Shown here: piece after piece, positions 575 through 45,945 of the stretch
Layout: each line of letters starts with the position of its first letter
Position numbering within the stretch: the stretch's first letter is position 1
From: a virus
Length of the DNA: 64,000 bases
Strand: one strand, 5' to 3'
Virus record (IMG/VR): IMGVR_UViG_3300042892_002669
Span: 13,106 to 77,105 of that record
The notes under the pieces: model-generated
The model's database searches: none
The model's input: only the letters and a program-made list of their open reading frames with translations
Told to the model about the DNA's origin: nothing
Made by a program: the position numbers and the translations under genes

Positions 575-792
575 TTTCTACTACCTCTAGCGTCTAATTT
601 TTCTTCTATTCTAGCCAACTGCTGTTGTACTGCAGTTAATTTTTCATTAGTGGACTGTGCTTTAACAGTGATCACTTCTACCTTTTTGTCTAAGTCAGCC
701 ATGGCAGTGTTCATGGTCATGTATCCTGTGCCACCCAAACTACAGGCGCCGATAACTATCCAAGTCAACTGGCCGGAGCTGAAGTCTATCAT
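571..792 (-). CDS. Small membrane protein (one N-terminal TM helix plus coiled coil)
   Basis: Hydrophobic LTWIVIGACSLGGTGYM followed by a heptad-rich C-terminus; ATGA overlaps with both neighbours. Confidence 0.7.
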   Translation of the reverse strand: MIDFSSGQLTWIVIGACSLGGTGYMTMNTAMADLDKKVEVITVKAQSTNEKLTAVQQQLARIEEKLDARGSRK

Positions 793-1382
793 TTTCTAGC
801 TCCAGTGGCTGGCTTAGGAGGACGACTAACACTGGTCATTGGACTCTTGGTTTGTATGTTCTCTTTAGATTTGTTGGGCGCTGTGGGTGTTTTATCACCT
901 GCATAGTCAATAGTGACGCTTGGTTCTTTGGGTAACACTTTATCCAAATATTGATTGCCATAGTCTTTGTTTGCCTGCTCTGCGCCACTGTCAGTCTCAT
1001 ATGGACTGGTTATCAATGGGCTTGCCTGATTGGCGTATTGATCATTCTCACTGTTGATGCTGTCATCGTACTGTGAAGAAATCACTCTCACTGAGTTTAT
1101 ATTCTTACCCAACAATTGAGCCATTTGCTGAATCATTGGTTCAGTGGCAGGGTACTTGAACTCTGCTTTAAAGATATGAACTGACTCGTTTTTCAGATCA
1201 GGAAAGCCGTATGGGTCTTTCATGATGGGGATAGTTTTTGGATCGCTGACACTAACTGGATCAAATTTGTTCAAGTTGTACTTGAACATTTCAATAAAAT
1301 TCTTATCGAGATCACCTGCTATCTTAATAGTGTAATGGTATGTTCTTACACTTTCAGTTAAATATTGACGTAGACTTTTCAT
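789..1382 (-). CDS. Hypothetical phage protein, probable virion/head protein
   Basis: Likely start MKSLRQYLTES at 1382 (AGGA RBS, GATAAATA at 1403-1410); ORF track start 1412. Confidence 0.7.
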   Translation of the reverse strand: MKSLRQYLTESVRTYHYTIKIAGDLDKNFIEMFKYNLNKFDPVSVSDPKTIPIMKDPYGFPDLKNESVHIFKAEFKYPATEPMIQQMAQLLGKNINSVRVISSQYDDSINSENDQYANQASPLITSPYETDSGAEQANKDYGNQYLDKVLPKEPSVTIDYAGDKTPTAPNKSKENIQTKSPMTSVSRPPKPATGARK

Positions 1383-1401
1383 GGTTTGTTTCCTATTAGT
1401 A

Positions 1402-1893
1402 TTATTTATCACTATTGGTGTTTTTGTTTGCCAATAACATTTTCAGCAGTTCGTTTCTATCAAGTACACTGCCCGTTCCCAATGGCGTAGATTCTACTTC
1501 TTTGGTCTTTTCTGTGGTTTTTTGATCTAATGCTGCTTTTTTAAGCTGCAAGTCAATCATTTTTAACTTTTTATTCAATTTAGCTGTTTTTGCAGTGATT
1601 GCATGCCCCAACATACTGCTGGCACTGTTAAATATCTCACTGGCAAATCTGCTGTCCACTTGCATTCCCAGTTCCATCAAGTCATCAAAGCTTTCTTTGG
1701 CTAACTGTGCCAGTTCATCCATCTCAGCATCGCTGGCTTCTAACCCTCGTACCTGGGGTAATGCACTTTCTATTTTTTCTAAATTTGAATATGCCTGAGT
1801 AGTAACTTGCTCAATTGCCTGCACTTGGTCAGACTCACGCTGTGGTGCAATATCTTCTGGCAATTCAAACAATTCTGAAAGTTTCTTTGTCAT
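1402..1893 (-). CDS. Terminase small subunit (T4 gp16-like)
   Basis: Helical pattern DLMELG...SRFASEIF...ML..AI.AK..KL...DLQ and C-terminal DRNELLKML resemble gp16-like small terminases; adjacent to the gp4-like gene. Confidence 0.55.
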   Translation of the reverse strand: MTKKLSELFELPEDIAPQRESDQVQAIEQVTTQAYSNLEKIESALPQVRGLEASDAEMDELAQLAKESFDDLMELGMQVDSRFASEIFNSASSMLGHAITAKTAKLNKKLKMIDLQLKKAALDQKTTEKTKEVESTPLGTGSVLDRNELLKMLLANKNTNSDK

Positions 1894-1918
1894 ACTACTC
1901 CTATATAGTAGTATTTAT

Positions 1919-2356
1919 TTACTTTTTTTTACCATTATAAAAAATGTCGTCTTCAGTTATTACTCTAAACACCAATCCCTGACTCTTACAATATGCATGG
2001 GCTGCTTGCCATTTGGCATGATTTACTGCCACCACTGCTCGGTCAGACACACTGGCCTTTTTACTTTCAATGATACTTTGTTTTTTTGGCTTGATCTCCA
2101 CTACTTCAGCTATTTTACTTCCATATTTGTTTTGATACACTACCACAAAGTCGGGAATGTAATTTGCAATTTTGCCTGTAAGCGGATTACGATAGGGTAT
2201 TTTAATAGACTCACTGGCCCAGTTTAACACATTGGGATTGTTGTCAAGGAATGTCATGAATGTGAGTTCCCAACCTGATCTGAATCTGGGCTTGTGGTTG
2301 CCCAAATACTTTTCAGTGTTTTTCACTTCGTATATTCCCTGCGCAAAGCGTGACAT
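1919..2356 (-). CDS. Head completion nuclease (T4 gp4-like, TnsA-type PD-(D/E)XK)
   Basis: FRSGWE..FM.FLD.NPNV..WASE...IPY, Y.PDF, VEIKP, VN.AKW.AA and F.VITE motifs. Confidence 0.85.
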   Translation of the reverse strand: MSRFAQGIYEVKNTEKYLGNHKPRFRSGWELTFMTFLDNNPNVLNWASESIKIPYRNPLTGKIANYIPDFVVVYQNKYGSKIAEVVEIKPKKQSIIESKKASVSDRAVVAVNHAKWQAAHAYCKSQGLVFRVITEDDIFYNGKKK

Positions 2357-2721
2357 TATATCACTATGTTTCGTTGAATTGCTTGATTTGGTTGAGGTGC
2401 TGAGCTTACACCATATAGTGTAGCCTTTGATTTTATACTGTTAAGATAGTAGGCCATGATAGCATTCATTTCTAGGCCACTCTTGCCCTTGATCTCATCC
2501 AGCAGCGTTAACACATGGTAACCAGTCATGTCTGCTATTCTGAACAAAAAAATTGTAAAGTTAGTGGCAATAGTATTGCTGTCACTCACGCTTATAAAGT
2601 AGCTGCGAACTACGTCATACTCAGCAGCACCAATAGGTACGGTGTTGTCAAAAGCCTGCTCAAATTGTCTGGTGTCACTGTCCTGATTGGTGGTTGGTGC
2701 GCTGTCTAGTGTTTTACTCAT
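2356..2721 (-). CDS. Hypothetical protein
   Basis: 121-aa ORF, tightly packed in the tail operon with an upstream AATAAATA. Confidence 0.65.
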   Translation of the reverse strand: MSKTLDSAPTTNQDSDTRQFEQAFDNTVPIGAAEYDVVRSYFISVSDSNTIATNFTIFLFRIADMTGYHVLTLLDEIKGKSGLEMNAIMAYYLNSIKSKATLYGVSSAPQPNQAIQRNIVI

Positions 2722-2747
2722 TGTGTTACCCCAAGTGTATGTTGTAT

Positions 2748-3860
2748 TTATTTGGTGCCGTTATACACTGGGAAATTAAATGCACTGTTTCTATTGGGAG
2801 TGCCTCTGGCTGCATCTGATACTCCACCCAACAAATCACCTTTTACTGCATTGAGTAAACCACCTGATTTAAAGGTGTTGGCTGTTCTGCCTGCGGTTTG
2901 AACTGCACCCAGAATGTTGCCACTGGCCAAGTCACTGACAATTGAATCAACTCCATCAACTAGGCCGCCCTGCCCCAATATAGTACCATTGGCGCCGGCA
3001 CGTGCTATAGGACTCACTGTTTTATCATAGTGTGCAGGATTTGCAAAATCATCCAAGCTGGGATCTCGACCATCAATCGCGCCTGCTGCATACTTGACAG
3101 TTTCATACCCAATGGTCATGCTATTTTCCATTGTACCACCTGCTTCACTGTAACTGTAGGTGTCATGCTTAAAACCAGTTATCATTGGATTTATCAACGT
3201 GTACATCGATACATTGTGCTGGTTAAATCCATGTATTCTGATTGATTTAAAAAACGGCACTTTACTCATACTCAATGAGCCAGCCAACTGAGATCGTTGA
3301 TCTGCCGCGCTTTCGCCTATGTAACCCCAATCAACTGATTCCATATCATAATCATATATATTTCTTTTATTGTAATCTATTTTTTCTGGACCACGACTCA
3401 CTTGACGGCTGGAATCCATTCCCACTTTAGTGGCATCTTTATAATAGTAAGTGTAATAGTTATACCATAGTTGTCTGATCAAGTTGGCATTGTCATCATG
3501 AAACGTAATGTTGATGTCATCATACTTGATTTTAGTTTGTACAATACGCTTTCTATTGTACTGATTCATAGTGTGAGTATCAAACGTGAAGGCTGGCAAT
3601 TGAATTGTTTTTACTGCCAATCCAAATTGGTTGTCAACAGGAAATGCTGCGTTAGTGGGATCGATTAGATTGGTGTTTATATCAAAGTATACATGAAATA
3701 AAAACTTAAATTTAGGACTATATGAATAACTGTCAGTTCTAAATGTCTTTGACGCATGTTGAAAATCGCGCAGGTAGTCGTTGCCAAAGAACCCTTTGGC
3801 AACTCCACTCAACGTTCTACCTACTGAATCTCCTAATAGATTCTCGATAAATCCGGCCAT
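2748..3860 (-). CDS. Tube-fold baseplate/tail tube initiator-like protein (gp54/gp48-like)
   Basis: LAVKTIQLP.F, NQYNRKR, INITFHDD and MTIGYET tube-fold motifs; directly downstream of the tube gene. Confidence 0.6.
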   Translation of the reverse strand: MAGFIENLLGDSVGRTLSGVAKGFFGNDYLRDFQHASKTFRTDSYSYSPKFKFLFHVYFDINTNLIDPTNAAFPVDNQFGLAVKTIQLPAFTFDTHTMNQYNRKRIVQTKIKYDDINITFHDDNANLIRQLWYNYYTYYYKDATKVGMDSSRQVSRGPEKIDYNKRNIYDYDMESVDWGYIGESAADQRSQLAGSLSMSKVPFFKSIRIHGFNQHNVSMYTLINPMITGFKHDTYSYSEAGGTMENSMTIGYETVKYAAGAIDGRDPSLDDFANPAHYDKTVSPIARAGANGTILGQGGLVDGVDSIVSDLASGNILGAVQTAGRTANTFKSGGLLNAVKGDLLGGVSDAARGTPNRNSAFNFPVYNGTK

Positions 3861-3866
3861 TGAGAA

Positions 3867-4502
3867 TTATCTTCCGCCGCCGATACCAGTTACTGTAGTA
3901 CCACCGAATGCACGACCAACTTGTACGCCAACACCTGAACTTAATGGTGATTGGATTGCGTTGTCGAATCTAATTGCCAACTGCATAGTGGCCATTTCAC
4001 TTGAACCGTAGTTCAAGTTGTTATAGTTCACTGACTGCAAGAAGCAACCATATAGTTCCCATGTTTCTAGTACGTTGGGTGTTAATGTACCATTACCACC
4101 GTCTAGAACTTCGTAGTTTACCTGAAACTTATAGTCTTGTCCAGTAGCAGCACTGGCTTGCTCAACAAAGTCCATTTGTTTCTGCAATTGCTGACCTACC
4201 AATTTGGCTACGCTACCAGATGCGTCATCACGCAAGTTGATAGTAGTAGCTGCCCATTCATGTTTACCTGCCAAATACATTTTACTGTTGTAGATGTCAA
4301 TTGGAATTTCAGAGAAACTCACTGAAGGACGAGTGACATCCATTACTTGTTTGGTTAACTCTTGGGTAGAACCACCTACCCCAAAGTTTAAAAACAATGC
4401 TCTAAAACGATATTGTAGCTTGGGCATCAACAGACCTTGAGAACTAGCTGTATTATCCGCCCCTACGGTCATATTGAACAATGATTGTGATGCTGTTGCC
4501 AT
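3867..4502 (-). CDS. Tail tube protein (gp19-like)
   Basis: RP.VSF.EI, AGKHEW..TTINLRDD, ETWELYGCF..V.Y..L.Y, LAIRFDNA; follows the sheath gene. Confidence 0.85.
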   Translation of the reverse strand: MATASQSLFNMTVGADNTASSQGLLMPKLQYRFRALFLNFGVGGSTQELTKQVMDVTRPSVSFSEIPIDIYNSKMYLAGKHEWAATTINLRDDASGSVAKLVGQQLQKQMDFVEQASAATGQDYKFQVNYEVLDGGNGTLTPNVLETWELYGCFLQSVNYNNLNYGSSEMATMQLAIRFDNAIQSPLSSGVGVQVGRAFGGTTVTGIGGGR

Positions 4503-27674: not shown

Positions 27675-29087
27675 TCACTTTTTAAGACTATTGAGCATTG
27701 CCCTCAGTTTTGTACTCTGCACTTCCGCTACCACTTTCTTCTCCGGGGCTGCATCCATAACTTCACTTACATGAGTAGGACTAACTACTTCACTGGAAAC
27801 CTTGAATTTACTCATAATTTGATTGGCTGATGACTGTTGATTATTGGCTGCATAATCGTCAGTTCCAGGGTCAGTAATTCTAAGTGTTTCTATGTTAAAT
27901 TCTAGGTCAATCTTCTGTCCAACACCACTACTGCTTCGGGTTTTCATCAATTGAATCTGATATTGACCACGCTCGCGCATACTTCTACTGGTAAAGATAC
28001 CTATCACGTTATCTGCTGTGTTGATCTTTGAGATACCACCACTAATATGACTGTGATCAAATTCAATTTCTTCCACTGCGCTACGATTCAACTGACTGGC
28101 TGTTACCAACAACACATTCAATTCTTTGGCTAGATTTCTAATTTCTTCTGCTACATACTTGTCTTTAATGAACAAATCACTGGGGCTTACTTTAGCACTC
28201 ACTGGCATCAACAAGTCCAAATAGTCAATACACAGGAAGTCCACTTTGAAGTTGGCTTGGATTTGCAGTTCTTTGCAATAAGCCCTGATATCATTCACTG
28301 TACTCTGTGCTGGCATATACTTGATACGAAAGTCACCCGACTTCTTGGCAGTCATTTTGACTTTCATTTCAACTGTGTCTAGTTCTCTGAAAATATCTCT
28401 GGCACCCACTGAAGTAACCATGCTGTCAATACGCATTGCACTCAAGCCTTCACTGAGTTCCAGTGTTAAGTATACGCCACTGAGTCCTTGCTGTGCCCAG
28501 TTCACTGCAAGATTTTGCATGAACAAGCTTTTACCTGAGCCAGATCCGCCTGCAAAGATTTGTAGTTCTCCACGATTGAATCCACCATACAGTGCTTTGT
28601 CTAGCACTGGCCAGCCTGTACTGACCTGTCCATTGTTGTTCTTTAGTTTCATCAGGCGAGCACGAGGATCAGAAAAGTAATCAGTACCCATGTCTTTGCT
28701 AATACTGATCTGAACTGCGTCTTTAATCAGTTTCTCCACAGGATCATAATCACCCTTCTCTAACAAGTCGGCTGATTTCAGAATGGCACGTTCTAGTTCT
28801 TGTCGTTTGGTAAACTGTTCAAACTCATCCAGAAACCATTCACAATGACCTTCACCCAAGTCGGCCACTGGCTCTAAATCAACACTGCATGATGCAGCGA
28901 TTTGACCAGGTTCAGGCAGCGTGTTATATTTCTCAGTGTGTTCCTTAAAGAATTTAACAACAGGTTTCAATGCCTTATCAAAGTTTTCAGGATTTACTAT
29001 GTTGGATACTCGGGTGTATAATTCACCGTCAGTAACCATCATGCGCAAAAACAACTTCTGAACTTCGAAATTATAATCTTTTAACAA
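27675..29087 (-). CDS. Replicative DnaB-like helicase (T4 gp41-like)
   Basis: STGW..LD, Walker A GGSGSGKS, YLTLELSE, IDYLDL, TASQLNR, KTRSS.G.G. Confidence 0.95.
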   Translation of the reverse strand: MLKDYNFEVQKLFLRMMVTDGELYTRVSNIVNPENFDKALKPVVKFFKEHTEKYNTLPEPGQIAASCSVDLEPVADLGEGHCEWFLDEFEQFTKRQELERAILKSADLLEKGDYDPVEKLIKDAVQISISKDMGTDYFSDPRARLMKLKNNNGQVSTGWPVLDKALYGGFNRGELQIFAGGSGSGKSLFMQNLAVNWAQQGLSGVYLTLELSEGLSAMRIDSMVTSVGARDIFRELDTVEMKVKMTAKKSGDFRIKYMPAQSTVNDIRAYCKELQIQANFKVDFLCIDYLDLLMPVSAKVSPSDLFIKDKYVAEEIRNLAKELNVLLVTASQLNRSAVEEIEFDHSHISGGISKINTADNVIGIFTSRSMRERGQYQIQLMKTRSSSGVGQKIDLEFNIETLRITDPGTDDYAANNQQSSANQIMSKFKVSSEVVSPTHVSEVMDAAPEKKVVAEVQSTKLRAMLNSLKK

Positions 29088-30045
29088 TATTTTTCCTCTG
29101 CATTTCTATTTTTATTTTACTAGTGGTCGCACTCTGTAGTATACTTAACAGAGTGGGAAACTTGCCATATTTAATTACTGCATCATTAACATCTTTTATC
29201 TCATCGTGCCAACTGGGTATGCTTACACTGTATCCCAACTCTATGGCTCGTTCACACACTGCCATACCTGGCTTGTCTCTGTCAGGAACAAATATAATTT
29301 GACGATTCAGTTGTCTCAGTAACCTTGATTGCATGTCACTGATATCATTGTGCATCAATGCGCAACCATCTATACTCAGTGCATCAAATATGCCTTCAAC
29401 CAAGATACACACTTGCCAGTCTGCCTTCTGTTGATCGTAACCAAATACATATCCCGGTTGTTGATCGTTGATGTACTTGGGTATTCTAGTGTCCAAGAAT
29501 CTGCTGGTATTGCCCACTATAGTGTTTTGATAGGTATATGGTACTATAACTCGGTTACTGTTTCTGCCAGTGGCAGTGGGTGATACAAAGAATTTGAACT
29601 CTACTGGATTTACTTTTCTAGACAACAGGTAGTCAACATAAACTTTATGCTGTGGGTTGGTCAAATCTAACGGTTCACTGTCAGGCAACTGAGTTTGTTT
29701 AAAGTGTAGGGGCTTTTCTTTTTTAAACTTCTTGGTAAAGTCCAATAGGTCTTTGTTCTGCAGGCTTTCCAAGTTCCAGCGTTGTATCTGTTGTTGATCT
29801 ACGCCGCACCAAGTTAGAAAGTCTCTGGTTTTCTTACTTAGACTGTTGCCAATTTCCAGATTACAACTGTATCCACAATTGAAACAATGATATACCCAAT
29901 TGGCGCCTTCAGTAAACTTGATGCCACCGCGCTGCCGTCTGTCCACGGTGTGACCGCGCTTGTCGCAGCAGGGCGCATTGAAGCTATGCCAGCCGCTGCC
30001 GCTTACTTTCTTCTTACCAGGAACAATCAATAAAATATCAAACAT
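29071..30045 (-). CDS. DNA primase (gp61-like; Zn finger plus TOPRIM)
   Basis: PCC...YHCFNCG; LVEGIFDALSI; VPDRDKPG; KDVND. Confidence 0.92.
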   Translation of the reverse strand: MFDILLIVPGKKKVSGSGWHSFNAPCCDKRGHTVDRRQRGGIKFTEGANWVYHCFNCGYSCNLEIGNSLSKKTRDFLTWCGVDQQQIQRWNLESLQNKDLLDFTKKFKKEKPLHFKQTQLPDSEPLDLTNPQHKVYVDYLLSRKVNPVEFKFFVSPTATGRNSNRVIVPYTYQNTIVGNTSRFLDTRIPKYINDQQPGYVFGYDQQKADWQVCILVEGIFDALSIDGCALMHNDISDMQSRLLRQLNRQIIFVPDRDKPGMAVCERAIELGYSVSIPSWHDEIKDVNDAVIKYGKFPTLLSILQSATTSKIKIEMQRKNIVKRL

Positions 30046-30093
30046 GCTAGTATTATAGCATACTGTAAGACAAAAGTATAGCAGTGTGGTATC

Positions 30094-30870
30094 TTATCTT
30101 ACCAAAACTCCAGCTACATCACCTGCTGTGCCGGCAAATTCTATACGATAGAATGGATGAGCACCATTGGGAATAGTATAGCCAATTGTAGTTGAGTTGG
30201 TGCTGTATGTGTAAACATCATCAATTGCATACCAATCACCTTGCACCTCAGTGGACGCTTGCAATTGTACCGTACCGGTATAATTACTGTATGCTACCTG
30301 CATGGTAACAGTGGAGTCTGATGCCAATTGAAATACACTGCTATAAAAGGTAACCGCCACGTTTCCAACTGGATATTGGTGACTGGGTATCCCAACTATC
30401 TGGGATGGTACGAATTCGGGCAGTATGCTGTCTAGTACCTGTATTACTCCACTGGCGGTGGTGTCTGAGTCTGCAAACACTGGGTACCCAGCTTCAGTTG
30501 ATCCAGAGTCTTTCCACTCCAATGAGTACCTGCACATTTGTGATGTGATTGTATTCAACTCACCGTCGGTGACTTCTAATATAGCAATACCAGTTAATGG
30601 CAGCGCACCCAGTGTTGGATCAGTACTAAGAGCTTTGGTCATTAGTACACTCTTATTGTCATCACTGAGCAATCTGAACGATATTTCTTTTCCAGTGACA
30701 TCAACTGGCTTTTGCTCTTGGTTTAAAAATTGGAATTGAATCTTATTTTTAACGCCCTTGTGCAATTTAATGGTTTTTGCGTACACGTTTTTGTATCTCC
30801 TAGCTGAGTTTCCATGCGAAACCACTACCGTTTGTCTGGGGGTATAGTAATAAACAGAGGTTGAGTACAT
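30094..30870 (-). CDS. Hypothetical beta-rich protein, possibly a baseplate/virion component
   Basis: LHKGVKNKIQFQFLNQEQKPVDVTGK Ig-like N-terminus. Confidence 0.55.
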   Translation of the reverse strand: MYSTSVYYYTPRQTVVVSHGNSARRYKNVYAKTIKLHKGVKNKIQFQFLNQEQKPVDVTGKEISFRLLSDDNKSVLMTKALSTDPTLGALPLTGIAILEVTDGELNTITSQMCRYSLEWKDSGSTEAGYPVFADSDTTASGVIQVLDSILPEFVPSQIVGIPSHQYPVGNVAVTFYSSVFQLASDSTVTMQVAYSNYTGTVQLQASTEVQGDWYAIDDVYTYSTNSTTIGYTIPNGAHPFYRIEFAGTAGDVAGVLVR

Positions 30871-30938
30871 GCGAATTAGTCCTTTACACTATTTATTAAA
30901 TTTTTCGGTAATAGTTCCAAGATAAATATCCGTGAATA

Positions 30939-31325
30939 TTGAACCTTATGCATAACGAGTTTTTCACTAACCTAACTGCCAACCATCCATTTATCACGGT
31001 CTGTTCCTATTCGGGACAAGATTATGTGGGTATAATCCAAAACCGTGATGATATAGTCACCACTATGTACGATTATGGGGCTATCGTAACCAATCCATTG
31101 CGTGAAAAGTTCCTAGAATTAGGGGACATTTGGTGGTGGGAAAGCAACAGACTGACGCCCATTAACCTGTTTCTCAAGGATGATTGGTCTGTGTTCAAGC
31201 AGTACTTGCGTACATTCAACAACAAAAGTCTAAACGTGCTGCATGGCCCAATCTGTAGCATCAGCGAGCTGAGCAAAAAGAAATCCAAACGTAAATCTAT
31301 TACCCTAGTCCGGCGTCTTGGATAA
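30939..31325 (+). CDS. Hypothetical protein
   Basis: 128-aa ORF behind GATAAATA (30921-30928); WWWESNR motif and basic C-terminus. Confidence 0.7.
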   Translation: MNLMHNEFFTNLTANHPFITVCSYSGQDYVGIIQNRDDIVTTMYDYGAIVTNPLREKFLELGDIWWWESNRLTPINLFLKDDWSVFKQYLRTFNNKSLNVLHGPICSISELSKKKSKRKSITLVRRLG

Positions 31326-31874
31326 CAAGTTCATGTGTACTACAACCAGATGGGCGTAGCCGATTGCATGCGCTTTCTTAAAACTGTACCCTTCATCGTT
31401 CTTATCCCACACTGTCTTTGCAACTTCGCTCCATGCTTTGCCTATCAAATGCTTTTTTGCTGGTCTGATCAGTGCTAAAAACATGGCCAGTCTGGGAATA
31501 CTGTTCACTGGCTCTGGCATCTTGCGTAAACTATTGTAGTGATTACTCAAGTGCAACAGTCGGCTGACGAAAGCACTGTCATTCAACTGCTTCCAATCAG
31601 GTTCCCGCATCAGTGATATTAACTCTGCTTCATCCTTGATTAAATTGTACACGTGTACATTCAGCAAGTCTAACTTCAAGTAACCACGTTTATCTGCCTC
31701 AGTGTAATCAATATTGGCCATGCTGTTGACTGCATCATAGGGTATGTCAGTTATATGCACGCCAGTGGTGTGCTTGCGCATGGGAGTGACCTTGCGCATG
31801 GCTGCAGGAATATGCTTGATATGTTCAAGTATCTTGCTGCGATCACCAAAGTCAATATCAATGTCAAAGTTCAT
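31305..31874 (-). CDS. Miniature DnaE-like (family C) polymerase catalytic core
   Basis: FDIDIDF, KHTTGVHI, GYLKLDLL, LALIRP and YSFKKAHAIGYA match the ordered DnaE motifs PDxDxDF, KHAGGV, KxDxL, LxRPG and FNKSH. Confidence 0.8.
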   Translation of the reverse strand: MNFDIDIDFGDRSKILEHIKHIPAAMRKVTPMRKHTTGVHITDIPYDAVNSMANIDYTEADKRGYLKLDLLNVHVYNLIKDEAELISLMREPDWKQLNDSAFVSRLLHLSNHYNSLRKMPEPVNSIPRLAMFLALIRPAKKHLIGKAWSEVAKTVWDKNDEGYSFKKAHAIGYAHLVVVHMNLLSKTPD

Positions 31875-32419
31875 GGCTGCATCACGCCTGCATCAATTAG
31901 TTTCCTGTATGCCCTCTGTACCACAATAGCCTGACGTTCTGCATCTTCTACTGCTTTGTGTGTGGTAACATGTCCACCATCTTTTAGTTTAACTCCAGCA
32001 ACTTCATACAGAGTTCTGGTGTCTCTCACTGTGTAGAAGGGCCATGGGCATCTGATATCCAGTTGCGCCCAGGCATTCTCCATGGCCACACAGTCAAACG
32101 CTGCACCATTACTCCACACTGCTCGCTTGTTCCAGCAAAACTTGTAAAGCTGTTGCATGGCATCACGAAAAGGAATTCGGCCTTGGTCTCCCATGGCCTC
32201 CTGCTGTGCTGCCAGACTTTGTGTACCCCACCACCTGAGTGTATCTTCATTGATTGTTCTGTTGAATTGCTCAGTTTGTTCTTCAATGGTGGGGCGCAAT
32301 TCCAGTCGTTCCACTACGCCAGTTCCCTTGGGATCAAATCTGACCGCACCAATAGTAAGTATGACACAGTAAGGACTTGTGTCTAAACTTTCAATGTCAA
32401 TCATTATATCAGTTGCCAT
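31871..32419 (-). CDS. DEDDh 3'-5' exonuclease
   Basis: MIDIESL, WSNGAAFD, RDTRT, HKAVEDA..QA. Confidence 0.88.
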   Translation of the reverse strand: MATDIMIDIESLDTSPYCVILTIGAVRFDPKGTGVVERLELRPTIEEQTEQFNRTINEDTLRWWGTQSLAAQQEAMGDQGRIPFRDAMQQLYKFCWNKRAVWSNGAAFDCVAMENAWAQLDIRCPWPFYTVRDTRTLYEVAGVKLKDGGHVTTHKAVEDAERQAIVVQRAYRKLIDAGVMQP

Positions 32420-32422
32420 ATA

Positions 32423-32665
32423 CTAACTCCATCTTAATACAAAAAAGGTTACTTCTTGATTCGTTGAAAATTCCAGTGTCATTCCTGTTATTGATTCTTT
32501 ACCATTTGCTAGAGTAGCGTCACACCATTCTTCTAATTCTGTTAAGTGCTCATCCCAATACACGTAATCAATCAGCAATACCCAATGATCAGCCTGACAC
32601 GAAGGAAATGCCACTGTCTTAGGACATACAATGAATTTAAGTTTAGAATCTATCTTTTTTATCAT
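32423..32665 (-). CDS. Hypothetical protein
   Basis: 80-aa ORF ending F.LRWS. Confidence 0.6.
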   Translation of the reverse strand: MIKKIDSKLKFIVCPKTVAFPSCQADHWVLLIDYVYWDEHLTELEEWCDATLANGKESITGMTLEFSTNQEVTFFVLRWS

Positions 32666-32679
32666 TTAGATAATTAGAA

Positions 32680-32961
32680 TTACTCACCGTTTACCAGTTG
32701 CTGATTGTCCGATACCAACGCCAACAGTGCATGAGCAGTGAATGTGACCTGCTCCTCAGACAACTTTAAGTTGTAGGCATGATCCAGCATGTGCAGCACT
32801 TCGTGATACACTGCTATTTTTTTAGTTTGATCAGTCATTGTTTGATTGATCCAAATCTCCTGGGTGTTGAAGTTGGCCAGCCCCACTCTGCCTTCCATTT
32901 CTTCAGCAGTCTTGAGTAAGATTTCGTACCGCAATCCACATATTTGTATATTATCTATCAT
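32680..32961 (-). CDS. Small HEXXH (zincin-like) protein
   Basis: IWIN...YHEVLH...E motif. Confidence 0.65.
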   Translation of the reverse strand: MIDNIQICGLRYEILLKTAEEMEGRVGLANFNTQEIWINQTMTDQTKKIAVYHEVLHMLDHAYNLKLSEEQVTFTAHALLALVSDNQQLVNGE

Positions 32962-32964
32962 AGT

Positions 32965-33660
32965 TTACCATTTCAATTCTGTCATCAATTGTTTTATTTC
33001 ATCTGCTTTGTCAACTTCTTTGCTAAATTTAATAGCCCACTGCACTGGATTAATGTAGTCGTAGACCATCTTAACTTGGTCATGAGCCAACTCATCCAGC
33101 AGTTTAACACCACTTTCACTTTGATACAACACCCATGGGCTAATTCGTCCAGTGGTGATAGCATAGCATATCTTGTTTCTGTTACCATAACGCAAGTAAT
33201 CATTTGGTTGTAGTTTTTCAGCTTCAGCCAAATCCAAACAGTGTGACACCGTGCGTGTCACTGCATCCAATGCATTCTCAGTTTTGGTATATTCCAATAG
33301 GAACTTGGTATAGTTTGCATCACTGGTCCATGTATCCAACTTGATATTTTCTTTGAGCAAGAAGTCTACGAATCTGGACACGTTCACGCAATTCATTGCC
33401 ACACTGTAGGCGCCAAATTTTACAAAAGCAGTGTAATAGGCAGACTTGATAAACTCCTCATATGTACGAACTTTTTTACTCAGGCTATTTTTAGTGTAGA
33501 ATTGCAACCAGCTTTGAAATCCTATTTGATTGCCCCTACGGTCTCTCTCCAACCAACGATGTTTATACTCACATATGTGCTTGAGTAATGTACTCTCACG
33601 CACAAAGCTCCTGTTACAAAATTCACACGAGTGCTTGTCAGTTGCCGCGATCTTGCTCAT
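32965..33660 (-). CDS. Hypothetical protein with N-terminal C2H-type zinc finger
   Basis: CEFCNRSF.RE.TL.KHIC; GRISPW motif; in the replication cluster. Confidence 0.7.
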   Translation of the reverse strand: MSKIAATDKHSCEFCNRSFVRESTLLKHICEYKHRWLERDRRGNQIGFQSWLQFYTKNSLSKKVRTYEEFIKSAYYTAFVKFGAYSVAMNCVNVSRFVDFLLKENIKLDTWTSDANYTKFLLEYTKTENALDAVTRTVSHCLDLAEAEKLQPNDYLRYGNRNKICYAITTGRISPWVLYQSESGVKLLDELAHDQVKMVYDYINPVQWAIKFSKEVDKADEIKQLMTELKW

Positions 33661-34234
33661 ATTGTTCTATTTCTTCGTCTGTTATAATATCATTGAGCAC
33701 ACCAATGTCAGCTAATTTTAGATTGGGAAACATAGTTCCCAAGTAGAATTTACGCCGTTGTTGTTTTACAACTTCTTCGCTAACTGCTTTTATATTTTCG
33801 GCTGATTCTTTAGTATATATTTTTGCATAATAGTCAGACACTTCCTTGACTGTTGCTTTGTCTTTTAACAGAGAAACTGCTGCCCTGATATGCGGGATAT
33901 ACTGATGGAACTGTTTTCCCAACTTGGGACTGGCTGCGCACAACATCAACCACTGCAGTTTACTGTGCTTGGCTATTGCCTCATTTAACAGATACGTATT
34001 GGCATGTTTCTCCAAGCTTTGCAAGTAGTACTGTTGAATGCCACTGCTGGCTTTCACTGCACTCATCCAATGAGCCAGCATAAAGGGCACAAACTTTTTA
34101 CGCTGTTCATCAGTTAACCTGTCATAGTAATCATAGTCTTTTCTGTCCAATGCATCCAGTGCAGGAAACAATGGGAAGTCAGTGTCTGTGAACTTTTCGT
34201 CAGCCGAGGTTTTTGTTGTCTTTGCTTTTGCCAT
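33638..34234 (-). CDS. Clamp loader small subunit-like (gp62-like)
   Basis: FVPFML.HWMS, H.KLQW, A...L..I pattern; replication cluster context. Confidence 0.5.
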   Translation of the reverse strand: MAKAKTTKTSADEKFTDTDFPLFPALDALDRKDYDYYDRLTDEQRKKFVPFMLAHWMSAVKASSGIQQYYLQSLEKHANTYLLNEAIAKHSKLQWLMLCAASPKLGKQFHQYIPHIRAAVSLLKDKATVKEVSDYYAKIYTKESAENIKAVSEEVVKQQRRKFYLGTMFPNLKLADIGVLNDIITDEEIEQYEQDRGN

Positions 34235-34737
34235 CAGAATGCCTGGTTATAATCTACAATCTCACAATTTCTACTGACTTCTTTAACAAAATATATGCAT
34301 CTGGGTTTAGGACCATCTTCAATTGGCACACACAAGAACTGACCATTCTTCAATCTGGGCGCATACCAAGTTACATCATGGTAGATATCAATTATCTCAA
34401 TCTCACAGAACGTGGGCTTGAAACTGGTGAGAGGATTGAACTCAAATACCTTGAAGCCTCTGTCATTGATACTGGTAAGTGGCAGTGTTTCCAAGTCACC
34501 CAATTCTGGTTCGCCAATCAACACTTGCCAATCAACTGGCATCTTGATTATTTTTTCTGCGATTCGTAGTACCAGTGCTGGACTGTTAAATGATTCTAAA
34601 AAGATCAGGGGAATGTAATGATAGTCAACGTTTGCTGGATTACTGTTATCCAAAATAGCAAAGCGCAGGTCATCTATTTCTTCCGGAAGAGTTTCAAGAT
34701 TGTAAGCGGAGTTGTTGTCTAGTGTAAGAATTTTCAT
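34234..34737 (-). CDS. Conserved hypothetical protein
   Basis: 167-aa beta-rich ORF behind TTGACT-17-TATAAT. Confidence 0.7.
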   Translation of the reverse strand: MKILTLDNNSAYNLETLPEEIDDLRFAILDNSNPANVDYHYIPLIFLESFNSPALVLRIAEKIIKMPVDWQVLIGEPELGDLETLPLTSINDRGFKVFEFNPLTSFKPTFCEIEIIDIYHDVTWYAPRLKNGQFLCVPIEDGPKPRCIYFVKEVSRNCEIVDYNQAF

Positions 34738-34774
34738 GTTATTATTATAGCAGTATATTAGGAGTAAGTCAATC

Positions 34775-36232
34775 TTATCGGTACTTTAATTTTTCTACAG
34801 TAAATGGATAGTTAGCATCCTTGTAAAATTCTTTCCGCTTGGTCAGGTGCCGCTTGGCAAACTTACAGCTACTGGTTATATCCCAGATCATCACATGATC
34901 TTTGTCTTCAGCTTTTCGGATACCTCGACCAATCGATTGTATAACCCGAACGAAGCTTTTTCCAGGCTCAATAAGAACAAGGTTAAAGATACGGGGTATA
35001 TTAATACCCACAGCAGCAACACCGTAAGTTGCAATAATAATTTTACCAGTACTTGTCGCAATTTCATCATATTCTTCTTTCCTTTCAGTTAATTTTGTTT
35101 CGCCACTTACAAACACACTATCAGGCAGTCTGCTAATTAGTTCTTTACCAGCATTGACACGATCTACCAGTACCAGAGTATTTCCGGTAGCATTGACCTT
35201 GAGAATCAACTCAGCCATTGTATCCAGTCGGTCAGTGTCTTCCAGTAAATGTTTCAACTCACTCTGATAGTTACTGAACTCCACAGTGTCCTGCAGTTGT
35301 ACAATATTTACATGACACTGTGCCAGTACGCCTCTGTCTTGCAATTCACTGGCCGATAATTTGTTGGTAACTGCACCAATACTTACCAGCAGTGATAGCT
35401 GTTGTGATTTCTCTTTTGGAATAGTTCCAGTCAATCCCCACCGAATGGGTACTTTAGCAAATGGACCAGTCAACATTGTTTTTAGTGCATCGGCCTGCGC
35501 CATGTGCGCTTCGTCAACCATGATGCATACCACATCTTCAATAAAGTCTACGATTGAGATTTCAGCTTCACCTGATTTAGTTGCCTTCATCATGTTGTTA
35601 AGGCTTTGCCAAGTGCATATGGTATGCGTCTTGCCAATGTCTTTGCGATCACCAAAGTAAACACCCACATCCAATCCCAAGTTGATGTAGTCTGCTTCAG
35701 TTTGTACCACCAAACTCTTGTTGGGTACGATAACAATGCTACGACCATATTCTTCTACACTTTTGCTCAATGCAGCGGTGATCAGAGTTTTGCCTGCACC
35801 AGTGGCCACTTCTTGCATACTCTGTGGGTTGGCCAGAAAGTCGTTAACAATGGACACTTGATAGTCACGAAATAAAACTGGATCGCCTGCTCGCGGGTGA
35901 CCCACTGGCCATGTTTTGTCGCTGAATGTATCTTCTGTTATCTGTGTAAAATTGAAATGATGAGTGTGCTCTCGCAAATCTTCCAATTCAATATCGTAGC
36001 CAGCGCTGTCAAGCACTGGCAAGATTTCTTCTAGTAGATTTACATAAGTAGAGCCACCCAAGCTGAAATAACTGACCTTGCCATTCCATCTGCCCAGTCT
36101 CACTGATGGCAAATATCGGGCGCCAGGTACATCAAACTCAAACATCTTCATTAACTTTCTGCGTTCTGCTACTTCCAGGCCAATCAGCTTGCAGTTTACT
36201 TCATCTTGTATTATTATTTTACATTGACTCAC
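34775..36232 (-). CDS. uvsW: UvsW-like SF2 DNA helicase
   Basis: RDYQ, ATGAGKT, DEAH, GLTGT, GINIP, QSIGRGIR, HLTKR. Confidence 0.92.
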   Translation of the reverse strand: MSQCKIIIQDEVNCKLIGLEVAERRKLMKMFEFDVPGARYLPSVRLGRWNGKVSYFSLGGSTYVNLLEEILPVLDSAGYDIELEDLREHTHHFNFTQITEDTFSDKTWPVGHPRAGDPVLFRDYQVSIVNDFLANPQSMQEVATGAGKTLITAALSKSVEEYGRSIVIVPNKSLVVQTEADYINLGLDVGVYFGDRKDIGKTHTICTWQSLNNMMKATKSGEAEISIVDFIEDVVCIMVDEAHMAQADALKTMLTGPFAKVPIRWGLTGTIPKEKSQQLSLLVSIGAVTNKLSASELQDRGVLAQCHVNIVQLQDTVEFSNYQSELKHLLEDTDRLDTMAELILKVNATGNTLVLVDRVNAGKELISRLPDSVFVSGETKLTERKEEYDEIATSTGKIIIATYGVAAVGINIPRIFNLVLIEPGKSFVRVIQSIGRGIRKAEDKDHVMIWDITSSCKFAKRHLTKRKEFYKDANYPFTVEKLKYR

Positions 36233-39296: not shown

Positions 39297-39542
39297 TCAA
39301 TAAGGTTCGTCTTCGTCTTCGTCGTACTCGTCCAGATCATCGTCCAGTTGATCCGCATAAACTTTTAATGCAGTGGCAATGTCTTTGTCGCCACGGAAAG
39401 CAAATGCTGCCTTGATATCTGTGGGATCAGCATTATTTTCTATCATGTAATGCACGATAGAATCTGCTGCATCCTTGCGTTCATTGAAATCAATATGATT
39501 ACGCAACACTTCCCAAACTTCTGCAACTATATCTAAATTCAT
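39297..39542 (-). CDS. Small acidic hypothetical protein
   Basis: 81-aa ORF coupled to uvsX. Confidence 0.65.
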   Translation of the reverse strand: MNLDIVAEVWEVLRNHIDFNERKDAADSIVHYMIENNADPTDIKAAFAFRGDKDIATALKVYADQLDDDLDEYDEDEDEPY

Positions 39543-40648
39543 TAGACCATCTCCTGTTCAATTGCTGGGTCATCTGTTTGTTCAACTTGGTCAACCACTT
39601 CCTCATCTGGCGTTGCCGTTGATTTTTTCACACCATTGCTAAATTCAGTCATCACGGTGTCCAAGCAGTTGTTCTCATTTGATTCCCAACCCTTGCGGAA
39701 CTGCTTGATAACAACACCATCGCCAGTGGTGTAAGACAATCGGTTGCCTTCTTTGGTGAGCAGTCCATTTTTCTCAAACAAGTCAAGCAAGCCCGAATAT
39801 GGATTCATACCAGTGCTGTATGGAATCTTGATCTGCAGAGTTTCAAAAGGTTTGGCGTATCGTGTTTTCATAATCTTACATGCGGCACGAATACCATTTA
39901 CTTCTGAGACCTTGTTACCATCTTCATCTTCTTTGAGCTTGAGCTTCTTCATTGCAACCAGAATACTACTTGCGTATACGAAGCCCTGACCACCACTTAC
40001 TTTATCATCTGGATCAAACATATCCTGACTGGCGTATGTGTGATTGGTAGCTACCATACCAATGTTCAAGCTACCAAACATATTTACTGAGTTACGTACA
40101 AGTGAGGCCAGTGCTTTGGGCTTACGACCCATGTCACCTTTCATGTCACCTGCTTCAAACTGATTAACGTCAGTTGGAGTCAGTAACATGCCCAAACTGT
40201 CAATAACAAACAATACTTTTGGACGATCTTCCAAAGGCAATGTCTTGTAATCTGTTACAAACTTGCTTACTGTTTTAGCCACATCGTCAATCATGGCCAT
40301 GTTTAATTTTAATAGTTTATCTTCACCGGTGTCAACGCCCAGATCATGCAACCACTTTTCATCTAGTGCATTTTCCGAATCGATGAGAACCACAAAGATA
40401 CCTTGCTTTTGTGCGTGTCTAACCAAGTTGCCACTGCATATAAAGCTTTTCCCTGATCCAGATTCACCAGCAAATACAGTGACTTTGCCCAAAGGAACGC
40501 CTTTGTTAAAATCACCACTGATAAGATAATTGAGTGCATAATTTCCTGTACTGATCCAATCGGTTGGATCATTAAAACCTATACTAAGACCATCGATGCT
40601 CTTAGTAATTTCCCGTCTAAATTTTGATACGTCAAATGGCTTTGCCAA
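39542..40648 (-). CDS. uvsX: RecA/UvsX recombinase
   Basis: ISTGNYALN, GESGSGKS, IDSENA, VIDSLG, TNHTY, SGGQG. Confidence 0.95.
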   Translation of the reverse strand: MAKPFDVSKFRREITKSIDGLSIGFNDPTDWISTGNYALNYLISGDFNKGVPLGKVTVFAGESGSGKSFICSGNLVRHAQKQGIFVVLIDSENALDEKWLHDLGVDTGEDKLLKLNMAMIDDVAKTVSKFVTDYKTLPLEDRPKVLFVIDSLGMLLTPTDVNQFEAGDMKGDMGRKPKALASLVRNSVNMFGSLNIGMVATNHTYASQDMFDPDDKVSGGQGFVYASSILVAMKKLKLKEDEDGNKVSEVNGIRAACKIMKTRYAKPFETLQIKIPYSTGMNPYSGLLDLFEKNGLLTKEGNRLSYTTGDGVVIKQFRKGWESNENNCLDTVMTEFSNGVKKSTATPDEEVVDQVEQTDDPAIEQEMV

Positions 40649-40933: not shown

Positions 40934-41932
40934 TTATACCTTAGCCTGGCGTGAGCGAATCATTGCCAAAATATCTTGGGCTTTGTCGCTTGACGGTGCT
41001 GGAGCTTGTGCAGCGACTGCTGCGGGTGGAGTTTCAAATTGGTCGTCACCTGTCCAAGGAGCAGTAGCAGGTGCTGCTGCAGGCTTGCTGGTTACCACTG
41101 TTTCAAATGTATCAGTGGCGGCCTTGACTGCACCAGCTGGTGCATCCAAACCATATGGACGATAGTATGCACCCCAACGTTCGTTGTCGTAGGGTTTACC
41201 ATCCACACTTGCCTCAAACATTTCTTTCATGATGCGCAGTTCTGCTTCACCAGGTTTCTTTGGCAAGAATTCTGACAGATTGAAAAGACCATGTGCTTCA
41301 ATTGCAGCTTGTTCAGCCTCAGTCAATGCACTTTCTTTACGACTCCAAGTTGAAGTGCTATAGTCTGCATAGCCACCCTTGGATGTTTTAGTCACGCGGA
41401 AATCAAGACCCTGCATGTAGTCAGTGGGCAGGTTTTCCATTTCAGGATCCATCAAGCTGGACTTGATAATGGTAAAGATTTGTGGACTGATGATGAAACG
41501 ACGAATTGGATTCGCAGGAGCCTTGTCATCACCAATTGGATTCTGACGTACAAAACCCTGAAACAGGTAGCTGCGTTTCTTCCAGTACTTGTTGGCCATT
41601 TCTTTCAATGACTCATCTTTGTACCAGGGACGTACTTCTGCCAAGATTGGGCAGCTATCGCCATACATTTCTACGCATGGAACTTGTACCACAACTTGTT
41701 TGCTATTGCTATCACCCTTGACACCATTGAATGGCAGCTTGATTACTTGACGCTCTACCCAGAAGAAAGTGTTAGCTGCGTCACCGTCTGGTAAGAAACG
41801 AATGGTAGCGTTGGTACCTTCTTCCATATTCCAATGGGCGTAGATTGAGTTGTCGCTTTGGGTAGGGGATGCTGATGATGATTTGTTTTCTTGTGCCGCG
41901 ATACGGGCACGAATTTCTGCTAATGAAGCCAT
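40934..41932 (-). CDS. Single-stranded DNA-binding protein (T4 gp32-like)
   Basis: IRFLP, PC.E..G..CPI, K.SYL, GLDF..TK..KGGYADYSTS.W. Confidence 0.9.
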   Translation of the reverse strand: MASLAEIRARIAAQENKSSSASPTQSDNSIYAHWNMEEGTNATIRFLPDGDAANTFFWVERQVIKLPFNGVKGDSNSKQVVVQVPCVEMYGDSCPILAEVRPWYKDESLKEMANKYWKKRSYLFQGFVRQNPIGDDKAPANPIRRFIISPQIFTIIKSSLMDPEMENLPTDYMQGLDFRVTKTSKGGYADYSTSTWSRKESALTEAEQAAIEAHGLFNLSEFLPKKPGEAELRIMKEMFEASVDGKPYDNERWGAYYRPYGLDAPAGAVKAATDTFETVVTSKPAAAPATAPWTGDDQFETPPAAVAAQAPAPSSDKAQDILAMIRSRQAKV

Positions 41933-44391: not shown

Positions 44392-45945
44392 TCAACTCAT
44401 CACTGCATAGAAGGGCAGCGGGGGCAGGAATTCGTCATAATCTCTGATTTGAGTCTCCAATTCCATGTGAAAGCTGCCCAATTCTTGTATCATTCTGACT
44501 ATCAGTAGCGTAGACATGACCAAATCATCAGTTTCTCCCGATTTTGCTGCATAACTGCCACCATGGGCCACAAAAGTCTTGAGTTCACTTATCAGACTGC
44601 GGCTGTTTATCTTCATCTTCTTGGATTCTATCAACTGCTTTAGCTTGGCGCATGCTGCCAGTTTACTCTTGTTGGTGGTGTTAAATCCCTTGCGTTTTTT
44701 AACTCCAGACTCCGTTAGCATGGTGCCAGGTATGTTGTGCTCACCATATTCATGCAGCGACACATTGGCAGCTTCGCCTATACTATTGTTTTCCAAACTG
44801 TAATAGATATTGTTTGGTTCGCCCGTACATTCAACTATGTACTTGATAATCTGCGTGATCAATTTAACTTGCTCGGGGATCGCGGTTTTGTTGTGCTTCC
44901 ATTCACCAATCTGGGTAGTGGAGTTTGCTTCAAATATTTGTATAGCCGCTGGATCGCCACCAGTGCCCAAACTTGGATCCAGTCCAATAACATAAATGTT
45001 GCCTTTGGTTGGTTGCTTGTACCAACGAATTTGTCCCTGTCTGGTAGTGGGTTCAACTCCTTCAAGTTCAAACAGTGCATTGGCATTGATCAGTGTTTCA
45101 TCTGCAATGATAAATTCAATTTCCATTTCACGACGGAATCTGTCATCACCCAACTGTGCTCGCATACTGGTAGCCCAGGCTTCATCACGTTCAGGATGTG
45201 ATCTCCAAGTGGCTTTGTACGCACGGAATCCATTGATGCCCAATTCTGTTTCGTTGCCATACTCATCTTCACATTTGTTTGCACCTTTCCAAATCAGTGC
45301 AAATTGATCTTCGTCACTGTTTGGTGTGCTGGTTATAATTGCTTTACCACCAGTTGATAGTGTTGGAGTAATGGATGTCCAGAACTCTTTGGCTATGGTT
45401 GGTCTTACGAATGCAAACTCGTCCAAGTACAGTAGTGAGATAGATAGACCACGACCTGTGTTTTCAGTTGTAGTTGCGCTTATGATACGACTGCCGTTGT
45501 CAAAGTCTATGTTACCCTTGTTGTAGGTGACCGCCCCTGCTTTAATATGATGAGGACAATTCTCATATGCATATCTTACACGAGACATGATTTCTTGTGC
45601 GCCTGCATATTTGTGCGCTGCAATCAGTATAGTAGTATCAGGTACAAACATAGCGTACCACAAGAGGTAACCTGCGGCACTGGTTGATTTACCTGTTTGT
45701 CGTGCCATCAAGCTGATACTGAATCGGTAATTATGATAAGTGTGTATCAGTTCTTTTTGGAAATCCCATGGATGATAGAGCAAACTGCCGCGAGTTGGAT
45801 GCTGTATATAGAAGAAATTGTCCATGAAGTAGAGATATCCCATGATGGGATCACTACATTTTACGAAATCGTCCAGTTGCTGTTGATTGGCAAACGTGGT
45901 TTTCTCGTAAGGAGTTTTTATTAACGCGGTGATATTTGTACTCAT
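44392..45945 (-). CDS. Terminase large subunit (T4 gp17-like)
   Basis: ARQTGKS, YLDEFAFV, ITSTPN, GLDPSLG.GGD, ENN.IG, DDLVMS. Confidence 0.95.
   Translation of the reverse strand: MSTNITALIKTPYEKTTFANQQQLDDFVKCSDPIMGYLYFMDNFFYIQHPTRGSLLYHPWDFQKELIHTYHNYRFSISLMARQTGKSTSAAGYLLWYAMFVPDTTILIAAHKYAGAQEIMSRVRYAYENCPHHIKAGAVTYNKGNIDFDNGSRIISATTTENTGRGLSISLLYLDEFAFVRPTIAKEFWTSITPTLSTGGKAIITSTPNSDEDQFALIWKGANKCEDEYGNETELGINGFRAYKATWRSHPERDEAWATSMRAQLGDDRFRREMEIEFIIADETLINANALFELEGVEPTTRQGQIRWYKQPTKGNIYVIGLDPSLGTGGDPAAIQIFEANSTTQIGEWKHNKTAIPEQVKLITQIIKYIVECTGEPNNIYYSLENNSIGEAANVSLHEYGEHNIPGTMLTESGVKKRKGFNTTNKSKLAACAKLKQLIESKKMKINSRSLISELKTFVAHGGSYAAKSGETDDLVMSTLLIVRMIQELGSFHMELETQIRDYDEFLPPLPFYAVMS

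Follow-up and report, generated by a model that had tools for sequence, protein, structure and literature searches.

We analyzed a stretch of viral DNA of 64,000 nucleotides (the window), which comprises bases 13106-77105 of the IMG/VR contig IMGVR_UViG_3300042892_002669 (77,105 bp, estimated to be 22% complete). An open reading frame (ORF) at 31305-31874 on the minus strand of the window encodes a protein of 189 amino acids (aa), which is very probably the C-terminal half (C-half) of a two-gene miniature polymerase of family C (DnaE/Pol III alpha-like). The N-terminal half (N-half) is encoded by a distant gene on the same contig. The two proteins would have to assemble non-covalently into one active site, and the enzyme would most likely carry out distributive, short-patch synthesis beside a family B polymerase (PolB). 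A split enzyme of this kind has already been described computationally by Iyer, Anantharaman, Krishnan, Burroughs and Aravind (2021, Viruses 13:63, PMC7824862), and the gene, though genuine and unusual, is thus no novelty. Our analysis is therefore a correct rediscovery, to which we add the exact split point, the finding that the thumb has been lost completely, three fused forms that occur naturally, and a clade-specific exonuclease neighbor that overlaps the start of the C-half gene. The phage itself has no close cultured relative, since a Megablast search for near-identical DNA with positions 30000-36000 of the window against cultured phages returned no match.

Sequence and conservation of the C-half

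The ORF is intact and starts with ATG. A first-pass annotation, made from the letters of the window alone, had listed a series of DnaE motifs in this ORF, and all of them were found in the stated order: DIDID at residues 4-8, KHTTG at 34, KLDL at 67 (containing D69), IRP at 136-138, and FKKAH at 165-169. The existence of the ORF and its named motifs is thus confirmed, and such a motif set is far beyond chance. The assignment as the C-terminal half of a split minimal Pol III alpha draws on a PHROG match, a profile search against the PDB, a predicted model, and motif mapping. The profile phrog_11778 ('DNA polymerase') matched residues 3-186 of the 189 with an expectation value (E) of 3.7e-53, and the long DnaE-type PHROGs gave weak local matches. 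A profile built from 89 C-half representatives (A1) matched nine PDB sequences, each of which is a Pol III alpha (best E 8e-6).

Next, the motifs were mapped on E. coli DnaE, whose sequence was taken from NC_000913.3; the residue register given here is a sequence mapping rather than a residue-level structural alignment. D4, D6, and D8 of the phage protein correspond to D401, D403, and D405 (DFDVD at 401-405), K34-H35 to K510-H511, K67 and D69 to K553 and D555, R137-P138 to R639-P640, and F165 to H169 to F756 to H760. The catalytic pair is hence D4/D6, with D8 equivalent to D405; the first-pass annotation had been right about D69 and two residues too far along with its D6-x-D8 pair. The C-half contains the metal-binding residues D4/D6 (plus D8) and D69, K67, and a trimmed fingers subdomain (R137-P138, K166/K167, and H169), in which the finger motifs of family C (F/I-R-P and F-x-K-S/A-H) are kept.

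The short spacing between the DxD motif and the third catalytic Asp, which had been pointed out before, was borne out by the mapping, as 63 residues lie from D6 to D69, compared with 152 in E. coli. Only 25 residues stand between D8 and K34, replacing E. coli 406-509, whereas 104 stand between E. coli D405 and K510, indicating that the whole thumb has been removed. The limits of the E. coli thumb, reportedly set out by Lamers and colleagues in 2006, are residues 433-510. Similarly, 27 residues separate P138 from F165, compared with 116 in E. coli, and about 90 finger residues are gone. The C-half therefore spans the equivalent of E. coli DnaE 401 to ~781, with the thumb and these finger residues deleted within.

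The C-half family is large: clustering at 90% identity yields 4516 clusters, and 357 representatives remain at 50% identity. Among cultured phages, the C-half was found in 95 records, all of them jumbo phages of the Rak2/121Q/GAP32/PA5oct/Atu_ph07/XaC1 type, at 30-45% identity. Across the 89 representatives (30-54% identity), K67, D69, and P138 are invariant, and D4, D6, D8, H35, G38, R137, and H169 are at least 98% conserved (D4, D6, and R137 at 99%, H169 at 98%). The median ratio of nonsynonymous to synonymous substitution rates (dN/dS) was 0.072 (Nei-Gojobori, 67 pairs with dS between 0.05 and 1.5). These checks, both proposed with the first-pass annotation, came out in favor of its protein: the C-half is under strong purifying selection, and neutral decay is excluded by the low dN/dS together with the conserved catalytic and finger residues. 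They bear on the possibility that the protein is a non-catalytic remnant of a captured dnaE, either in decay or kept for a structural purpose, such as serving as a decoy for replisome factors of the host. The extreme domain loss relative to DnaE and the presence of a separate replicase would agree with such a role; nevertheless, the near-invariance of the catalytic Asp, Lys, and finger motifs, the dN/dS value, and the size of the family make it barely credible.

Structural comparison and missing Pol III domains

An AlphaFold model of the C-half alone had a predicted local distance difference test score (pLDDT) of 95.9. As a query in Foldseek, this model returned Pol III alpha chains as all of its top eight matches. 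VIA-align superposed 184-186 of the 189 residues on Geobacillus PolC (970-1295) and Taq Pol III alpha (460-837) with Z 9.8 and a root-mean-square deviation (rmsd) of 3.2-3.6 Å; the matched range in E. coli was 399-781. Scores against family C polymerases ranged from Z 6.3 to 9.8, and the next unrelated row had Z 3.7. The C-half thus carries a Pol-beta-like palm with the DxD motif and the third catalytic Asp, and the structural match to the family C palm on which the first-pass annotation had staked its proposal is present.

The regions absent from the C-half were then sought in the own contig and in relatives. Five complete or near-complete relatives were available, namely two close IMG/VR genomes (92-100% complete), Atu_ph07, PA5oct, and RaK2. 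The PHP domain (PF02811) gave no match at E <= 1 in the own contig, the two close relatives, PA5oct, or RaK2, although the control search with PF02811 found it in 14 of 14 genomes; a PHP fragment elsewhere in the genome, for which a search had been suggested, was therefore not recovered. A further finger piece (PF17657) was found in none of the complete relatives, except for a weak match inside the RaK2 C-half itself. The C-half holds nothing past the equivalent of E. coli ~781, where the clamp-binding, HhH, and OB regions lie, HhH and OB profiles not having been searched separately. The domain losses proposed in the first-pass annotation accordingly hold for the PHP domain, the thumb, part of the fingers, and the C-terminal region. 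A search for a gp43-like PolB had likewise been suggested, and a PolB is present in all five relatives, including the two close ones.

Identification of the N-half and the split point

A PF07733 search of the whole contig located the N-half at contig positions 2174-2677 (L001:1510-2013) on the minus strand, outside the window and 41.7 kb from the C-half. Counted from the conserved ATG, this protein has 168 aa with a GRGS motif at residues 136-139. It scored 35.4 bits with PF07733 against a cut-off of 23.9 bits and matched phrog_11127 ('DNA polymerase') with E 1.5e-38. The GRGS motif is invariant and corresponds to E. coli 361-364. The N-half ends with '...DLSIDEFLK' in 19 of 19 aligned relatives, an end point that maps to E. 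coli ~392/393, and the C-half starts at the equivalent of residue 401. Therefore, the break lies between the GS element and the DxD strand of the Pol-beta-like palm. Residues 1-70 of the N-half, which sit where the PHP domain would be, showed no recognizable family.

The GS (GRGS) nucleotide-binding motif and the catalytic Asp residues are not joined in the 189-aa ORF; they occur in one polypeptide only in the rare fused proteins P0171, P0272, and P0273. Neither the N-half nor the C-half alone has a complete active site. The 'miniature core' of the first-pass annotation is consequently half a core, because the GS motif sits on the other protein. For the same reason, its second proposal, a stand-alone minimal nucleotidyltransferase, finds no footing in the C-half sequence, whereas its first proposal, one subunit of a split Pol III-like enzyme, is upheld by the N-half on the same contig and by the fusions and co-occurrence described below.

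The three fused proteins are 375-376 aa long and contain an N-half, a linker of ~10 residues, and a C-half in one chain. They are 78-81% identical to one another and are distinct metagenomic proteins from different sources. A predicted model of P0171 had a pLDDT of 80.7, with residues 81-375 being confident and residues 1-80 not; the prediction used the joint alignment A6, in which the last 9 residues of the N-halves are misaligned. This model was superposed on residues 290-830 of the Taq Pol III alpha ternary complex (3e0d_A) with Z 21.2 and rmsd 3.3 Å over 289 residues, and its E. coli range was 271-773. Against bacterial Pol III alpha and PolC in general (Taq 3e0d/2hpi, E. coli 2hnh/5fkw, and Geobacillus PolC 3f2b), the Z values were 20-21 over about 285 residues, and the phage enzyme shares with these the GS motif of the palm, the DxD motif, the third Asp, the K553 equivalent, and the RP and FxKSH motifs. 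The next rows outside family C were Pol-beta-type nucleotidyltransferases, with Z 4.1 at best.

Co-occurrence gave the same picture. Among phage records, 92 have the N-half and 95 the C-half, with near-identical genus counts. Both halves are present in all five relatives, always as separate genes, 33-182 kb apart; one 135-kb IMG/VR contig also carries both, about 35 kb apart. These data also bear on whether the 189-aa protein could work alone as a minimal nucleotidyltransferase or polymerase core. Such a role would be in keeping with its confident fold as a single chain and with the presence of all three acidic residues. However, the GRGS motif and the first palm helices are on the N-half, the N-half co-occurs with the C-half in the phage records and the complete genomes, and the natural fusions join the halves in DnaE order, so that independent action is very improbable.

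The gene order around each half is also conserved. The C-half lies between UvsW and the primase-helicase pair, and the N-half lies three genes upstream of the gp44 clamp loader, adjoining a GroES-like gene. This conserved synteny indicates that the N-half travels with the clamp-loader module and the C-half with the primase-helicase module. At contig 665-3898 (L001) and at the equivalent places in RaK2 and PA5oct, the order is N-half, small ORF, GroES/gp31-like co-chaperonin, small ORF, and gp44 clamp loader.

A dedicated search for longer relatives of the C-half returned only P0121, a protein of 425 aa on a single 1.4-kb contig, whose N-terminal 274 aa are unrelated and have no Pfam match. Residues 275-416 of P0121 match residues 43-184 of the C-half at 46% identity, and the protein may be interrupted by an inserted intein or homing element, for example, or may represent another fusion. 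Separately, P0285 and P0286 (540-551 aa) contain PHP and only the N-terminal part of PF07733. They are distant relatives of the N-part of the fused form and could represent the N-terminal parts of further split DnaE enzymes in which PHP is retained.

Proposed mechanism

Homology, natural fusion, and co-occurrence suggest that the two proteins would form a heterodimer, thereby rebuilding one active site. The N-half, encoded next to clamp-loader genes, would supply the first part of the Pol-beta-like palm including GRGS, which would bind the triphosphate of the incoming deoxynucleoside triphosphate. The C-half would contribute D4/D6/D69 and K67 for the binding of two Mg2+ ions and for catalysis. 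The assembled enzyme would be devoid of PHP, thumb, clamp-binding tail, HhH, and OB. Having no thumb or clamp contacts, it would be expected to perform distributive, short-patch synthesis beside the PolB replicase, and its role would most likely be, e.g., gap filling, repair, or recombination-linked synthesis.

Several points weigh against this mechanism. Firstly, polymerase activity, templating, and heterodimer formation are all things that we infer, and literature searches returned no biochemistry for any member of the split mini Pol III. Secondly, the C-half matched no Pfam family at E <= 0.1 and did not reach the gathering score of PF07733 (DNA_pol3_alpha), and PolB was not found in the own 77-kb contig, which is only 22% complete. 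Thirdly, the fold of the N-half is not predicted with confidence over its first ~70-80 residues, as judged from the fused homologue (P0171 residues 1-80, pLDDT 45-59), and the predicted arrangement of the halves could reflect AlphaFold's memory of solved Pol III alpha structures. Finally, to lack the thumb and about 90 finger residues is a severe handicap for a templated polymerase, and the enzyme may instead use another nucleotidyl-transfer chemistry.

This last point leads to a specific alternative, in which the halves do assemble but form a nucleotidyltransferase of the Pol-beta superfamily that is not a templated DNA polymerase and would, for instance, add untemplated 3' tails, extend primers or RNA 3' ends, or process ends together with the exonuclease encoded next to the C-half. 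It would account for the wholly missing thumb, the reduced fingers, and the missing clamp-binding tail, HhH, and OB, as well as for the full family B replicase in the relatives. Moreover, the next structural neighbors of the fused model are CCA-adding enzymes, Cid1-type tailing enzymes, and Pol beta, although only at Z 3-4. Nevertheless, the finger motifs retained in nearly invariant form (RP and FxKSH) are specific to family C, and Z 21 to Pol III alpha is far above the value of about 4 reached by any tailing enzyme. We therefore consider this alternative improbable and regard the split polymerase as the better description of the two genes.

The upstream exonuclease

The gene directly upstream of the C-half, at 31871-32419 on the minus strand, encodes a stand-alone, Rv2179c-like DEDDh 3'-5' exonuclease of 182 aa, which matched PF16473 over its full length (E 1.5e-33). 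D8, E10, D109, H154, and D159 are invariant in 19 relatives, and the DEDDh active site is intact. Its stop codon overlaps the start codon of the C-half as ATGA. The coupling of the two genes claimed in the first-pass annotation is thus present here. The exonuclease is upstream of the C-half in 50 of the 50 IMG/VR loci that have room to see it, with a gap of 0-1275 bp, usually 3-27 bp; these loci represent the uncultured clade of the window, with C-halves 65-77% identical. Insertions of 221-1275 bp separate the two genes in the IMG/VR relatives L025, L029, L034, L037, L043, L047, and L056, so the direct overlap is not universal even within the clade.

The coupling does not extend to the family outside the clade. 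Atu_ph07 and PA5oct have no PF16473 member, the one in RaK2 is located 42 kb from the C-half, and no exonuclease was found within 4 kb of the C-half in IMG/VR relatives that are 48-50% identical. Members of the Rv2179c-like family (PF16473; PHROG 255), with which the neighbor gene shares the full-length match and the invariant DEDDh residues, occur in many unrelated phages (387 records, best 36% identity), and the family has no general link to the mini Pol III. Only in this uncultured clade does such a gene immediately precede the C-half, and the adjacency is therefore clade-specific rather than family-wide.

A three-chain structure prediction with the N-half, the C-half, and the exonuclease as partner scored 0.39 (runs 0.39, 0.28, and 0.42) compared with 0.00 for the best control, which corresponds to 'weak support'. 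In the calibration of this prediction, the mark was reached by 58 of 80 solved complexes and 2 of 110 mismatches, and at 0.60 or under there were 7 of the 80 solved complexes plus both passing mismatches. Contacts agreed in at least 0% between runs and are thus not reproducible, and the pLDDT of the partner was at least 87. The exonuclease is, on this prediction, a weakly supported candidate for a trans-acting proofreader or end-processor in this clade only. The E. coli epsilon exonuclease docks on the PHP domain. The exonuclease described here is unlike epsilon, because no PHP exists for it to dock on. More speculatively, it might trim 3' ends for the mini Pol III. It is rather unlikely that the split enzyme of this clade recruited the upstream DEDDh exonuclease as a trans-acting proofreader, forming a three-protein, PHP-less enzyme of about 540 residues; if true, it would rank as the smallest family C polymerase with proofreading and could serve as a working model of ancestral Pol III.

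Other neighboring genes

At the other end of the C-half gene, a convergent ORF at 30939-31325 on the plus strand overlaps its 3' end by 21 nt. It encodes 128 aa with a basic C-terminal tail and matched phrog_11637, with no Pfam match and no usable match in the ESM Atlas. An opposite-strand ORF of similar size is found at the same position in the distant relatives Atu_ph07 (gp073), PA5oct (EST35_0221), and RaK2 (ORF125w), the correspondence being one of position and orientation. By position, this ORF is a more widely conserved neighbor of the C-half than the exonuclease.

The surrounding genes encode a T4-type replication apparatus, as the first-pass annotation had recognized: a DnaB/gp41-like helicase (27675-29087), a gp61-like primase (29071-30045), UvsW (34775-36232), UvsX (39542-40648), and gp32 (40934-41932). 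The large terminase is at 44392-45945, and a clamp loader is also on the contig. Upstream of the exonuclease, the same operon includes a 93-aa ORF (32680-32961, minus strand) with an HExxH-like 'YHEVLH' stretch, which gave weak Peptidase_M78/IrrE and SprT-like matches (E 1e-3 to 8e-3) and matched phrog_1233. The ORF at 32965-33660 on the minus strand encodes 231 aa with an N-terminal C2H2-type zinc-finger signature; it matched phrog_11058 (E 6e-56), with only weak matches in Pfam.

Discussion

The enzyme examined here agrees with the "split minimal DNA polymerase III alpha" reported by Iyer et al. (PMC7824862) in their group 2.2 jumbo phages. In that study, the phages with the split enzyme are described as having a family B polymerase as well and none of the other Pol III domains, and the enzyme was proposed as a model for ancestral Pol III. 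The same N-terminal NTP-binding unit (PHROG 11127) and C-terminal Mg2+/template-binding unit (PHROG 11778) are encoded there by distant genes in the same phage group (Atu_ph07, RaK2, 121Q, and PA5oct relatives), and nothing essential differs. PHROGs and many GenBank/RefSeq records already label both halves as DNA polymerase (III alpha). The novelty implied by the first-pass annotation is accordingly low, because the phenomenon is already in the literature. What differs here is the added detail, namely the exonuclease overlap, the three fused forms, and a residue-level map of the thumb deletion; an exonuclease partner of the split enzyme is not mentioned in PMC7824862. A literature search for expression data on the PA5oct homologues returned nothing directly usable.

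Compared with bacterial DnaE, which has 1160 aa in one chain, the phage enzyme would have 357 aa in two chains. It differs from DnaE in having no PHP, no thumb, about 90 fewer finger residues, and nothing past the equivalent of E. coli ~781, where the clamp-binding motif, HhH, OB, and tau-binding regions are located in the bacterial protein. About 70 N-terminal residues of unrecognized fold stand in place of the bacterial PHP domain. A bacterial-type family C catalytic module thus appears to have been cut down to about 360 residues in two chains, and the phages that carry it use a family B polymerase of archaeo-eukaryotic type for replication. This split polymerase family is an attractive biochemical target, and its reconstitution would show the minimum of Pol III alpha that is needed for catalysis, as well as the job of a second polymerase in a T4-like replisome.

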